Virus record (IMG/VR): IMGVR_UViG_3300005077_000026 | Coordinates: 21,261-85,260 of that record | DNA length: 64,000 nucleotides | Strand: one strand, 5' to 3' | Source of the DNA: a virus | Taxonomy: Duplodnaviria > Caudoviricetes | Shown: positions 39,423-44,645 of the stretch, in pieces | Numbering within the stretch: position 1 is the first letter of the stretch | Layout: each line of letters opens with the position of its first letter | Notes under the pieces: generated by a model | Databases searched by the model: none | Seen by the model: the letters and a program-made list of their open reading frames with translations, nothing else | Told to the model about the DNA's origin: nothing | Program-made: the position numbers and the translations under genes

Positions 39423-40061
39423 TTAGGCAGCCGTGGTGGTGGTCGTGGTGCTGGTCGAGGTCAGAGTAGACCCGTCGTTCCAAATGACAACACCGAGGGG
39501 CTTGTTGTCCCAAGCAATGTTGCCACCGGAGATTTCACTGTCTGCCCGTTTCGCCTCAATCTGAACGGCGACGGCAGCCGGCTCCTCTTCGGCGAACTCC
39601 ATCTCAATCGTAGCAGACACCTGGGCCCGGGGGAAGATGATGGTCATCGTGTTGGTGCCATCGGGGTAGGTGTACACCGACTCCATTCGGAGAGAGACAG
39701 GAGCTGCCAAGGTGCCCAACGGAATCTGCCCGTAATGAGCCTGGCTGTAGCCTGCAGGATCCAAGCCACGTGCAAGGGCGAAGTTCTTGGGGGTGATTTC
39801 TTTGAAACCCACCTCCATCATCGCAGATTCACGCAGGGGGTATACCGCATCCTCCAGCAGCGGAAAGCCCGAAAACAGCTTGAAATATTCGGCGCTGCCA
39901 GTGAACTTAGTATTTGCGAGGGCACCGATCGAGGCTGCCGCAGCAAGAATGGGATGCACCTGACCGATGTAGGTCGCGGATGCCCCAATCCTGATCTGTG
40001 CCAGCCCGAGGGCGATAGTAGTTGAGTCTTTGGTAACTGGACCGGTTCTTGCCATACTCAT
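39423..40061 (-). CDS. major tail tube protein with C-terminal Thr/Ser tag
   Basis: IALGLAQIRIG...IGALANTKF...IIFPRAQV; ends TLTSTSTTTTTAA; no sheath gene nearby. Confidence 0.75.
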   Translation of the reverse strand: MSMARTGPVTKDSTTIALGLAQIRIGASATYIGQVHPILAAAASIGALANTKFTGSAEYFKLFSGFPLLEDAVYPLRESAMMEVGFKEITPKNFALARGLDPAGYSQAHYGQIPLGTLAAPVSLRMESVYTYPDGTNTMTIIFPRAQVSATIEMEFAEEEPAAVAVQIEAKRADSEISGGNIAWDNKPLGVVIWNDGSTLTSTSTTTTTTAA

Positions 40062-40078
40062 TCTCCTTTCTTTACGGT

Positions 40079-40420
40079 TTAGTTGGGAATAGCTACCTCT
40101 CTACCAGAAGCTGTTTCGTTTCCGATTGCCTTTGTTCGATCCCCCTCAACGGGCGGTCGATTAGAAGGTGGCTGCGTGTGGGGAAAGAAATTTAAAACGT
40201 TCCAATGATCAGGGCTTTTTGCTCTACAGGACCTCCTCAAGCATTTCATTTTTATTGAGCCGTGAATGAGCATGTCCACAGGAAACTGCACAGTCTCACT
40301 CTCCTCAGGTCTGCGACCAAACAAGAAATGCCACAACCCGTTTGACTGCCTCTCCATCAACAATTTCCCGCAAATTGAACACCGAAAGTAACTTCTGTTG
40401 GGCTTTCCCATTTGGGGCAC
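40079..40420 (-). CDS. zinc-ribbon protein (Com-like spacing)
   Basis: FRCSICGKLL...IKMKCLRRSC. Confidence 0.5.
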   Translation of the reverse strand: MPQMGKPNRSYFRCSICGKLLMERQSNGLWHFLFGRRPEESETVQFPVDMLIHGSIKMKCLRRSCRAKSPDHWNVLNFFPHTQPPSNRPPVEGDRTKAIGNETASGREVAIPN

Positions 40421-40427
40421 CTCTCTT

Positions 40428-40898
40428 TCATACTATCGAAGCTGTCCTGCAAAAGCAGGTTAGTACTTTGTATTTGGTATCATCATCGGCATTCAATTCA
40501 CCAGATTCCAACACCCTTGTTACAATTATTGCACCCAACAGAGTCCAAGGATTCGTTGCATGACTCTGATAGAAGGGAATCCGCTTATAGCCATCCGTGC
40601 TTTGTTCATCAGAAAGGGCACCACGAACCTTGTCCTTTAGTTGTGCTAACCTAAACCCCTCATTATCCTGTCTTGTACAAACGTACACCTCAAGAACGAT
40701 TCGGGACATGGTATTGATCTCCATCTCCCCATATCTAATAGCAACCCACCGCGTCACCGTCTTCCCCTGCAGATCGGGAGAAGCAAGAGATCGATCAAAG
40801 GTGACAGGAACCCCCTCCGCAATCTCTATGTTATCCACAAAGAACTTCTTTACACTGTCACGGATATTGGCTTCTCGGGCTGTTGCATTAAGTGCCAT
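40428..40898 (-). CDS. putative tail terminator / neck protein
   Basis: Position before the tail tube and size (156 aa). Confidence 0.5.
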   Translation of the reverse strand: MALNATAREANIRDSVKKFFVDNIEIAEGVPVTFDRSLASPDLQGKTVTRWVAIRYGEMEINTMSRIVLEVYVCTRQDNEGFRLAQLKDKVRGALSDEQSTDGYKRIPFYQSHATNPWTLLGAIIVTRVLESGELNADDDTKYKVLTCFCRTASIV

Positions 40899-41109
40899 CT
40901 TTATATTGCTCCACTAAGCGGTCCATTGTGGGGATAAACACCTTTTTTAGAAACTCCATCTTACGATGCGTTTCTGGTTCTTCTTCCTTATTATAGTCGA
41001 TTGTCATCTTATCGAGCAAGTCCAAAATATCCCCAAGCTCCACAAGATCAAACTCGACGGTAACACAAATTCGCTTGGGTTGAACTCCAAGGATCAACAT
41101 GGCTACCAC
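40888..41109 (-). CDS. hypothetical protein
   Basis: 73-aa ORF coupled on both sides. Confidence 0.5.
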   Translation of the reverse strand: MVAMLILGVQPKRICVTVEFDLVELGDILDLLDKMTIDYNKEEEPETHRKMEFLKKVFIPTMDRLVEQYKDGT

Positions 41110-42409: not shown

Positions 42410-42417
42410 TTCTGTCC

Positions 42418-42879
42418 TTAATCCGAATCAGTAGGAGTCACCACAACCAAGTTATCATCCTCATACGTTGAATCCTGCCCGTAATCGTCGTAGCTGTAGC
42501 CGGCATCCAGCACCGTTCCGAACAGATGAACAGCACTGACACCAGCGAATTCTGCAGGATTCTCTTTCTTTGCTGCATTCCATTCCTGATCCATCTGACG
42601 AATCAGGGCACGGAAATGCTCAAAACGATTCTGGAGATTAATCTGTTTGAATTTAAACTTGTATGCAGACTCACCACACAGCATAAAGAATATGTGGCGC
42701 TTTGATCGCTGTTTCACCCAGTAGTCCTGGAAGTCAGAGGAGAGGGGAAAAGCCCACCCCGTCTCCTTGACCGCCAGTGACACTGCATTATCAATATCAT
42801 CGGGGAGGGTGATTTTAGAAGCAAGATCACCGATCTCCGACTCAATCTCATCCTTGCAGTCTGTCTCCGTCAAGCTCAT
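42418..42879 (-). CDS. putative head-tail adaptor
   Basis: Helical 153-aa protein two genes after the capsid. Confidence 0.5.
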   Translation of the reverse strand: MSLTETDCKDEIESEIGDLASKITLPDDIDNAVSLAVKETGWAFPLSSDFQDYWVKQRSKRHIFFMLCGESAYKFKFKQINLQNRFEHFRALIRQMDQEWNAAKKENPAEFAGVSAVHLFGTVLDAGYSYDDYGQDSTYEDDNLVVVTPTDSD

Positions 42880-42882
42880 TTC

Positions 42883-43263
42883 TTACAGCGTCCTTCGTTT
42901 AAAAGTGGGGGCCGAAGCATGAACAGCTTGACCTTGAGTGGTGCCTGTTGTGATCTTCTTCTCAGATGGGGGAGCAACAACAACCTGCTCCTTCTTAACC
43001 AGCTCCTTTGTCTTTTCCCGAATCCCATCCAGAACAGGATCCACTTCAGGCATGTCGGGAACAAAGTGCTTTACAACTTGGCGATTGAAACTGGGTTTGG
43101 GCTCTTTACCTAATAGAACACAAGTCTTGGAGTTGGTACGAACTTCCTGCTGGATTTCGATTGGAAGGGGAGGATAGATGATCTCCCCTTCCAACCAAAT
43201 TTTCTGAGTGGCTCCGTGTCCTACTTTCAAAGTGCGAAGCATTTTGACAGGTTCGTTTATCAT
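42883..43263 (-). CDS. hypothetical protein
   Basis: 126 aa, AAGGAGG SD, directly after the capsid gene. Confidence 0.55.
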   Translation of the reverse strand: MINEPVKMLRTLKVGHGATQKIWLEGEIIYPPLPIEIQQEVRTNSKTCVLLGKEPKPSFNRQVVKHFVPDMPEVDPVLDGIREKTKELVKKEQVVVAPPSEKKITTGTTQGQAVHASAPTFKRRTL

Positions 43264-43316
43264 ACGATTGCCCTCCTTAGAGAGATAGTTTCCTCAGCAA
43301 CCAAAACCAACCGACA

Positions 43317-44645
43317 TTAAGCAGCCGTCGTGGTGGTCGTGGTCGAAGAAGAGGTCGTGGTGCTGGTCGAGGTCAAGGTTTCGGCGTAGGTCGAAACGAC
43401 ATCGATGGTGTAGATAGCATCACGTTGGACAAGAACCGGCAAGCCCTTGTCTTGCACACGGATCCACAGACCTTCAGGATCCCACTCCTCTTTCTGATCC
43501 GGGTACATGCCGTAATGGCGACCCAAACCAAAGGGAGCGGCGAGATACATTCCGATGGGGGCACCATCCACGTTCGGAGCCATCATCAGGAATTTGTCGT
43601 CGGGGACGAACTTGCGCGGCATGGTAATGTAATCCTCGCCGGCCTTGTAGCTTGCAGCAGGGGTCTTGGAGACCTGAACCGCAGAGGTTTCCACATCAAT
43701 CGACTTGATGTAGGTATCCTCGTAGGTCCCTGCACTGGCGTCCCACAGACGGATCTTGTTGCCCACCACCAGATCGGAAACATCATCGACCGTAAACCAG
43801 GTGGTCGAGGCTGCCGTAACGGCGGAGGTCAGGTAAGCGCGGATCTCGTACATGCCATCCCAACAGATGAAGTTGTCAATGTTGAGCAACTTGCCCAACA
43901 CTTGGGGATTCACCCCAACGATGTCATGCAGATTTCCAGAGTAGAGATTGCCCACCCCTGCACCGAACTTGGCCTGCTCGAGGATTCCACGAATCGTGGT
44001 GTCATTCGCCAGGTATTTCAACACTGACGAATTGAAGATGGCTGTGGTCACCTTCCCACCGCAATCGTCCTCGATCTTTTGCTTGCCGTCCTGAATGTCG
44101 CTGATGATGTTTTTGCTGGCGCCGTTGTTCCAGTTGTACGTGGAACCTAGGGTGACGCGGTGATCAGACGGGATACCGTAGTTGAGAGTGACCTTGTAAC
44201 CAGCAGCCACCTCATAGGTGAACCCGTTATTGAAGAACATCTGCGCGAACATCCACTCCTTGCGGCGCTTGTTGCGGTTGCCGATCTGAGCGAACTCTTG
44301 GGCAACCTTCCGGGCAGAGGTCATGTAGGTTTCGGTGGTTCCCGGCTGGCGAAGATTGTTGAGGAATTCCTCATCGAAATACATCTTCTCCTTCCAGTAC
44401 GCCGCCTCAGCCGCATGTTGTGCGATGCCCATCGGATGGGTGACAGGAGCAGGGGCACCAGGAGCAACAAAGGGAGCCAAGCCCCGACCACCGCGATGAC
44501 TCTCCCATTTGATCGAACTCGATGGAGCGTTGATCGTGGGGAAGAGGTTAGAGAAAAACAACTCGGGAGGCCCCGTGAAGGCAGTAAAGTAGCCCACCAG
44601 TGTCTGGAGCCTTAGAATGGAAATGTCAGAAGCACCTCTCGGCAT
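43317..44645 (-). CDS. major capsid protein (lambda gpE-like) with insertion domain and C-terminal Thr/Ser tag
   Basis: LFP...RGLAPFVAPGAP...RRKEWMFAQ...LNYGIP...KFVPDDK; ends TLTSTSTTTSSSTTTTTTAA. Confidence 0.85.
   Translation of the reverse strand: MPRGASDISILRLQTLVGYFTAFTGPPELFFSNLFPTINAPSSSIKWESHRGGRGLAPFVAPGAPAPVTHPMGIAQHAAEAAYWKEKMYFDEEFLNNLRQPGTTETYMTSARKVAQEFAQIGNRNKRRKEWMFAQMFFNNGFTYEVAAGYKVTLNYGIPSDHRVTLGSTYNWNNGASKNIISDIQDGKQKIEDDCGGKVTTAIFNSSVLKYLANDTTIRGILEQAKFGAGVGNLYSGNLHDIVGVNPQVLGKLLNIDNFICWDGMYEIRAYLTSAVTAASTTWFTVDDVSDLVVGNKIRLWDASAGTYEDTYIKSIDVETSAVQVSKTPAASYKAGEDYITMPRKFVPDDKFLMMAPNVDGAPIGMYLAAPFGLGRHYGMYPDQKEEWDPEGLWIRVQDKGLPVLVQRDAIYTIDVVSTYAETLTSTSTTTSSSTTTTTTAA

Follow-up and report, generated by a model that had tools for sequence, protein, structure and literature searches.

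Among phages, virion glycosylation is not known to have been demonstrated beyond a few mycobacteriophages, and it was considered rare elsewhere; virion O-glycosylation reportedly occurs in Che8, Corndog and Myrna. Siphophage tube subunits can also carry an immunoglobulin (Ig)-like decoration at their C-terminus, which faces outward. The closest described precedent concerns the capsid and tail tube subunits of mycobacteriophages, for which glycans at the C-termini are reported (Freeman et al. 2023, Cell Host Microbe 31:1216, as summarised in PMC12619734 and PMC11600133). We analysed IMG/VR record IMGVR_UViG_3300005077_000026, a virus of the Caudoviricetes (85,260 bp; CheckV completeness 99%), of which bases 21261–85260, a stretch of 64,000 nucleotides (nt), form the window referred to throughout. 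Its major capsid protein, its putative tail tube protein and its neck stopper (head-closure) protein each end in a run of 14–23 threonine and serine residues, here called tails or tags. Judged from the genes, these tails are probably acceptors for O-glycosylation of the virion surface by enzymes that the phage itself encodes.

How does this locus compare with the mycobacteriophage system? In both, phage-encoded glycosyltransferases (GTs) are tied to capsid and tail tube C-termini in a siphophage, with synthesis in the cytoplasm, here proposed from genes. In both, methyltransferases accompany the GTs, as the summaries cited above describe for Corndog-type phages. The acceptors differ: the Che8 capsid ends in NKTGS and its tube in YSDGS, with no poly-Thr, whereas the tails described here are Thr/Ser runs. 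Moreover, the neck stopper is tagged too, and the phages are uncultured and of moderate G+C content (GC). None of the GTs of the present phage has a significant match in Che8 gp108-110 (blastp, best E 0.016–0.05), and tblastn of two of them, GT2b and GT4, against 50,697 INPHARED phage records gave no mycobacteriophage match. By its sequences, the system is a variant of the Che8-type concept with different acceptors, enzymes, neck carrier and phage groups. Like the Ig-like tube domains of the lambda gpV type, the tube tag is an accessory element at the C-terminus of the tube subunit, but it is a disordered Thr run and no folded domain. Our literature search on GT27-like or Thr-rich glycosylation in phages brought up no relevant work.

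The initial annotation of this DNA, made from the letters alone, had pointed out Thr/Ser tails on the capsid, tail tube and head-closure proteins, and the open reading frames (ORFs) and their ends are as it described (Table 1). The capsid protein terminates in AETLTSTSTTTSSSTTTTTTAA, the tube protein in GSTLTSTSTTTTTTAA and the 229-residue stopper in RPWTTTTTTTSTTTSSSSSSTTTTAP; the tube tail has six Thr before the closing AA where five had been given. The capsid protein matches PF03864 (E 1.6e-28; 100.1 bits, above the curated cut-off of 22.9) and phrog_29 (E 2.2e-46). The tube assignment is putative: the gene lies directly upstream of those for the tail assembly chaperone (phrog_1442) and a 1439-residue tape measure, and weak matches to the 'major tail protein' families phrog_476 and phrog_885 came from only 2 of the 9 tube-family members. 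PDB profile searches with tube and stopper gave no match. The AF2 model of the stopper (predicted local distance difference test, pLDDT, 87; predicted template modelling score 0.80) consists of two tandem beta-barrels, which VIA aligns to solved neck stoppers (Z 9.7 for 8vhx_F and 9jlf_C, 9.4 for 6tba_3A, 9.2 for 8gtf_M). Both halves of the model match neck proteins of Chi, FCWL1, GTA and R4C, the structural matches in BFVD carry the name 'Head closure knob', and the gene sits between capsid and tail genes. The predicted fold thus supports an SPP1 gp16-like neck stopper or head-closure protein. PilZ proteins and 3C proteases, the top Foldseek matches in the PDB, were rejected (template modelling score at most 0.3) in favour of the neck proteins from VIA-align and BFVD. 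The tag of the stopper has a pLDDT of about 60 and is therefore predicted to be disordered.

The tails follow a common grammar of a T-run, an S-run and a closing run of five to six T, then A, AP, V or the end of the protein. In a set of 90 distinct tags, drawn from many phages, the closing pure-T run usually measures 5–6 residues, and what comes after it is A, AP, V or the end of the protein. Other tracts with similar endings, to which the initial annotation had also drawn attention, are present: TTTTEP in a 1111-residue protein and TTTTTAPP in a methyltransferase. Could the tails be assembly or processing signals, cleaved off before the virion matures? The phage does encode a prohead protease; however, the same type of tag is found on tube, neck, decoration and fibre proteins, none of them protease substrates, and prohead proteases in HK97-type maturation usually trim capsid N-termini and scaffolds. 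We regard removal of the tails as highly improbable and would expect them to be retained in mature virions.

We then compared the tails within the capsid family. The IMG/VR scan yielded 74 capsid relatives, 70 of them with a readable end: 21 carry a C-terminal Thr/Ser tail of about 15–35 residues, while 49 end right after the conserved core (YILTV followed by A, E or N); the other 4 run off their contigs. In the clade of tagged capsids all readable homologues of the tube (12/12) and of the stopper (15/15) are tagged. Outside that clade the tube is untagged in 9/9 and the stopper in 40/41, and untagged loci have virtually no Ser/Thr run of eight or more residues within 10 kb either side. A maximum likelihood tree of the capsid cores (quick search, tags removed beforehand) places all tagged sequences in one clade, with an SH-aLRT of 100, nested among untagged ones. 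Since the tagged capsids form one clade and the three proteins are tagged jointly, these data are consistent with tags that were gained once, together, on three unrelated proteins. The untagged relatives, in which tails are absent, lack the enzyme GT2b. The lone exception outside the clade is the stopper homologue of an untagged relative (L067:4862-5593), which ends in a Ser/Pro-rich, not Thr/Ser, tail (SPSSSPSPSSSPSPSSSPSASPSVS).

What has kept the tags in place? Capsids of the tagged clade are 53–60% identical, yet the tag is kept throughout, and all four Thr codons are mixed in the tags; this indicates selection on protein composition. Neutral, functionless expansion of low-complexity DNA by replication slippage would agree with the variable tag length among relatives and with ACC/ACG-rich DNA that could slip. 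It sits badly with a single gain kept on the same three proteins through 40–47% capsid divergence, with the mixed codons, with the recurrent T-run/S-run/T5-6/A(P) grammar and with six related genomes without any tags, and we find it scarcely credible.

The tags of capsid and tube are also alike at the DNA level. The 23-mer GGTCGTGGTGCTGGTCGAGGTCA exists in exactly two copies in the window, one in either tag. No further site with up to 3 mismatches was found in the window, and shuffles expect 0. Both tags were recoded synonymously according to the codon usage of the phage itself, and 0.03–0.1% of trials then produced a common stretch of at least 23 nt (P ~3e-4 to 1e-3). The identity is exact and non-random, and low-complexity convergence, which had been considered as a source of the match, is rejected by this value; the rarity under recoding argues that one tag was recently copied from the other or that the pair underwent gene conversion. 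In the nearest relative with a readable tube end (L006) the tube tag is different, which fits a recent copying event in this lineage. The earlier suggestion that tags are copied between genes therefore holds for the capsid/tube pair of this phage and not for the tags of other genomes, which show no excess DNA identity; concerted evolution of tags as a general rule is rejected.

Which enzyme could place the first sugar? The candidate for an initiating polypeptide O-glycosyltransferase, on sequence grounds, is GT2b, which matches PF00535 with 35.7 bits, above the cut-off of 23.3. Its motifs LSVIIPFVNE, FFFSDGHC (DxH), GIYGGGENF and HHG are all kept in a 49%-identical homologue from a tagged genome (G001). 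Across 30 homologues Asp129 and His131 of the DxH motif and G230, G231 and E232 of the GGGEN motif are invariant, and N233 is conserved in the pairwise alignment. The best PDB match of a 30-sequence GT2b profile is the polypeptide N-acetylgalactosaminyltransferase (ppGalNAc-T) T10 (2d7i_A), a weak match at E 5e-5 whose alignment covers the catalytic domain and both motifs, with FFFSDGHC opposite FLDSHC and GIYGGGENF opposite EIWGGEQ. T4, T9 and T7 (E 6e-4 to 2e-3), T12, T1 and T2 follow. With these eukaryotic enzymes of CAZy family GT27, its closest solved relatives, GT2b shares the GT-A fold class, the DxH metal motif and a GGEN-type motif; the acceptors of the mucin-type system are likewise dense Thr/Ser runs, often ending near Pro. 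Unlike them, GT2b is only 335 residues long and has neither signal anchor nor Golgi context. It is plausible that GT2b works like a ppGalNAc-T. Its membership of GT27 is unproven, because the similarity is weak and the ricin-type lectin domain is missing. The 558 GT2b homologues are mostly ~50% identical and lie on phage-sized contigs; neighbours in the Atlas fall in virus-dominated clusters, and some related clusters carry PF02709 (Glyco_transf_7C). Capsid and GT4 have no close relatives in INPHARED, and GT2b has a single match there, in the cultured Tunturiibacter phage Tunturi_4 (L223, PP885687.1), which encodes a distant DxH glycosyltransferase (FFLDNHC) at 1567-2565, between terminase and portal.

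GT2b belongs to a cassette (20109-27982) in the late structural operon, right after the tail genes. Four of its genes encode GTs (one GT4-like, one GT1-like, two GT2-like), three encode methyltransferases, and the others a hexapeptide acetyltransferase and a 242-residue protein (p242) without a Pfam or NCBIfam match. All near-complete tagged-clade genomes examined (G000, G001, G037, G038, G044) encode GT2b, and it was not found in six near-complete untagged relatives, which have no tags. Around GT2b homologues at 73 IMG/VR loci, within 10 kb either side, Ser/Thr tracts occur in 47/73 and C-terminally tagged ORFs in 24/73. Of 13 near-complete GT2b-bearing genomes retrieved (GC 0.38–0.59), all have such tracts, and ten have 2–7 C-terminally tagged ORFs. 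Counted over several unrelated lineages, Thr/Ser tracts are found in 15/15 GT2b-bearing genomes, and exposed virion proteins (tail tube, capsid, head decoration) are tagged in 12/15. Residues in Ser/Thr runs number 52–1442 per genome in the 15 with GT2b versus 0–45 in the six without it, with no overlap.

The tagged proteins of other lineages include major tail proteins of phrog_807 (6 genomes), a head decoration protein of phrog_49 and head proteins of phrog_240 and phrog_687; in one genome (G057) the classic gpE capsid is untagged and the decoration protein tagged. Tube proteins of six cassette-bearing genomes match the phrog_807 profile ('major tail protein with Ig-like domain'), their best stretch covering just its N-terminal part, and end in poly-Thr; the run may stand in the usual place of the Ig-like domain. 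The core of GT4, GT1, the methyltransferase MT2, p242 and GT2b recurs in most GT2b-bearing genomes at 32–50% identity. Because tracts and cassette recur together in several lineages, they behave as one portable module. The proposal of a portable, acceptor-type tag appended to exposed virion proteins thus gains support from the clade-specific joint gain, the link to the cassette and the non-homologous carriers elsewhere. We regard it as evenly balanced whether GT4, GT1, the methyltransferase, p242 and a ppGalNAc-T-like DxH GT, as a mobile set of five genes, form together with short poly-Thr/Ser tails a widespread, portable mucin-type O-glycosylation system, by which many unrelated environmental phages would cover capsid, neck, tube and fibres with glycan.

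This distribution bears on two other explanations. The tails might remain unglycosylated and serve as hydrophilic, disordered bristles against sticking and aggregation, with the cassette directed at host envelope glycans, at fibres only or at DNA. Predicted disorder of the tails agrees with this, and untagged relatives carry GTs too. Against it, Ser/Thr tracts and GT2b cassette separate fully (15/15 versus 0/6 genomes), the cassette follows the tail genes immediately within the late structural operon, the nearest relatives of GT2b classically act on Thr-rich runs, and a thymidylate-synthase-like hydroxymethylase, relevant to DNA as the target, was not found. We therefore consider bare bristles unlikely. 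Alternatively, enzymes of the host might modify the tails, or they might bear another group such as phosphate, independently of the cassette. Ser/Thr accept several types of modification; but the tags go with a cassette borne by the phages, in different hosts and at genome GC from 0.38 to 0.59, and no kinase was noted in the Pfam and NCBIfam scans of the cassette, which makes this origin very unlikely.

We favour glycosylation of the tails by the phage's own enzymes, which could proceed as follows. The C-terminal Thr/Ser runs would be disordered acceptor tails served by the late-operon cassette. GT2b would act in the cytoplasm as a GT-A enzyme and, with the DxH and GGGEN motifs known from ppGalNAc-Ts, would put the first sugar on Thr or Ser of the tail; GT-B and GT-A enzymes (GT4, GT1 and the second GT2-like enzyme, GT2a) would extend the chain, and methyl- and acetyltransferases would cap the sugars. 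Because capsid, stopper and tube carry tails and fibre-like proteins carry long tracts, the virion would receive a mucin-like coat of glycans on its head, neck and tail. Such a coat might provide shielding, colloidal stability or reversible adhesion.

Several observations weigh against this proposal. Attachment of sugar, the identity of the initiating enzyme and the purpose of the coat are deduced, and the glycan is predicted from genes. The similarity of GT2b to ppGalNAc-Ts is weak and appears with the profile only, as the single sequence gave no PDB match at E 0.1; the GT2 domain is the only one detected in GT2b, and several other GT assignments in the cassette lie under the Pfam cut-offs. 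Tunturi_4 has its DxH glycosyltransferase, but Thr/Ser runs in 0/10 structural proteins checked. GT2b itself led to three of the five tagged-clade genomes, an ascertainment bias. Untagged relatives contain other GT1 and GT2 enzymes inside their structural modules, so that the presence of GTs alone does not predict tags. The initial annotation had placed the tags on the highest-copy virion proteins; this fails for the stopper, a low-copy neck protein, and high-copy display leaves that carrier uncovered. The AF2 model of the tube (pLDDT 40, from a 9-sequence alignment) is unusable. Finally, the tails are only presumed to face outward, because of the disorder prediction, Ig-decorated tube C-termini elsewhere, the mycobacteriophage precedent and the capsids of T7 and P22, whose C-termini are external. 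The nearest solved capsids (Chi 8vji, YSD1 6xgp) align to the N-terminal half only, and the direction of the C-terminus cannot be read from them.

If the proposal is correct, sugar-coated virions would be common among environmental phages, beyond actinobacteriophages, and would follow a transferable logic: a Thr/Ser tail of 15–25 residues on any exposed protein, plus the cassette. The coat would affect how phages meet particles, biofilm matrices, predators and immune systems, and tag and enzymes would form a compact set for the glyco-engineering of phage or protein surfaces. The closest prokaryotic-virus relatives of the eukaryotic mucin-initiating enzymes would then be located in phages, a testable link between viral GT-A enzymes and those of the mucin-type pathway.

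Further observations concern other Thr/Ser proteins and GTs. The 1111-residue protein of the head module has no Pfam match, is over half Thr/Ser and resembles a mucin-like head fibre; giant Ser/Thr proteins of this kind are also present in G002, G003, G037, G049 and G054. The methyltransferase next to GT2b (21109-22023) contains the internal T-run TTTSTTSTTTTTSTTTTTAPP, followed by the basic tail VKKRKTYISNLRRRRKND; this arrangement may link the enzyme to a peptide that binds nucleic acid or the capsid, or may mark a self-modified enzyme. A ~690-residue GT1-domain protein and a ~240-residue GT2 form a different pair, encoded in the head-tail connector region of the untagged relatives G008 (L083, ~66.9-68.7 kb), G009 and G017-G023, genomes in which no Thr/Ser runs were found. 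In G013 (L245, 88996-91850 in contig coordinates), a genome otherwise untagged and without GT2b, an ORF of 844 residues that contains two long runs of pure T sits immediately upstream of the gene for a 467-residue GT2; by their sequences the two may be a separate tract-plus-enzyme pair.

Table 1. Coordinates of tails, carriers, cassette genes and related features. Positions refer to the window, except in the last row, where the contig is given. SAM, S-adenosylmethionine.
Feature	Position	Strand	Basis or remark
23-nt stretch in tube tag	39441..39463		identical to 43353-43375
23-nt stretch in capsid tag	43353..43375		identical to 39441-39463
Major capsid protein, 442 residues, lambda gpE-like	43317..44645	-	Pfam PF03864 (Phage_cap_E), phrog_29
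Capsid C-terminal tag TLTSTSTTTSSSTTTTTTAA	43320..43379	-	missing from 49 untagged relatives
Putative major tail (tube) protein, 212 residues	39423..40061	-	synteny and weak profile matches
Tube C-terminal tag STLTSTSTTTTTTAA	39426..39470	-	12/12 tagged-clade tube homologues tagged
Neck stopper / head-closure protein, 229 residues, two tandem beta-barrels	41720..42409	-	fold
Stopper C-terminal tag TTTTTTTSTTTSSSSSSTTTTAP	41723..41791	-	15/15 tagged-clade homologues tagged
Virion-module protein, 1111 residues	46952..50287	-	two Thr/Ser tracts of ~300 residues, both closing with TTTTEP
Tail-fibre-region protein, 836 residues	28548..31058	-	Thr/Ser tracts at C-terminus
Prohead protease	45401-46777	-	late operon; phrog_3244
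GT4-type (GT-B) glycosyltransferase, cassette core	26705..27982	-	weak Pfam GT4/GT1, under curated cut-off
GT1-type glycosyltransferase, cassette core	25590..26696	-	Pfam scan, cassette comparison
GT2-type glycosyltransferase (weak match)	24832..25593	-	PF00535 at 0.004, under cut-off; homologues in 5 tagged genomes
Hexapeptide-repeat O-acetyltransferase	24368..24877	-	Hexapep 9e-12; Vat/CatB-like 3e-36, under equivalog cut-off
SAM methyltransferase	23760..24371	-	PF13578 at 1.7e-13
SAM methyltransferase, cassette core	23143..23772	-	weak PF13489; in 9 tagged genomes
242-residue protein, cassette core	22439..23167	-	homologues in 11 tagged genomes
SAM methyltransferase with internal T-run linker (TTTTTAPP), basic C-terminal tail	21109..22023	-	PF08241 at 8e-10
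GT2b, GT-A glycosyltransferase, DxH and GGGEN motifs	20109..21116	-	PF00535 at 1e-8
phrog_807 poly-Thr tubes	L201:10041-10640, L193:11881-12501, L196:12031-12621, L215:18321-18899, L187:12558-13223, L178:1614-2225		

Homologues of GT4 in 11 other tagged genomes are 37–50% identical. The late structural operon occupies the minus strand, starting near 55.2 kb and ending near 18.1 kb. It begins with a 642-residue ORF at the terminase position, for which the family search gave no match, a lambda-type portal (weak match) and the 1111-residue Thr/Ser-rich protein. The prohead protease, a 229-residue head protein, the major capsid protein and the neck genes follow, and then the putative tube, the tail chaperone, the tape measure, tail-tip and fibre genes and the block of GT, methyltransferase and acetyltransferase genes. 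A GTDB genome scan for the host returned 7 short contigs of metagenome-assembled genomes with mixed taxonomy (Thermotogota, Melioribacter, Thermoplasmatota, Desulfobacterales, Sulfurovum, Bacteriovoracaceae). These contigs are probably mis-binned phage sequence, and the host is therefore assigned to none of these taxa. No tRNA genes were found. The plus-strand genes form a replication module with PolA fused to a uracil-DNA-glycosylase (UDG)-like domain, a clamp loader, RecA and SbcCD-like proteins; the fusion, a family A DNA polymerase with an N-terminal domain of the UDG superfamily, is encoded at 2240-4840 (+). Between the late and early modules, at 56001-58000, the GC dips sharply to 0.33, against a genome mean of ~0.47.

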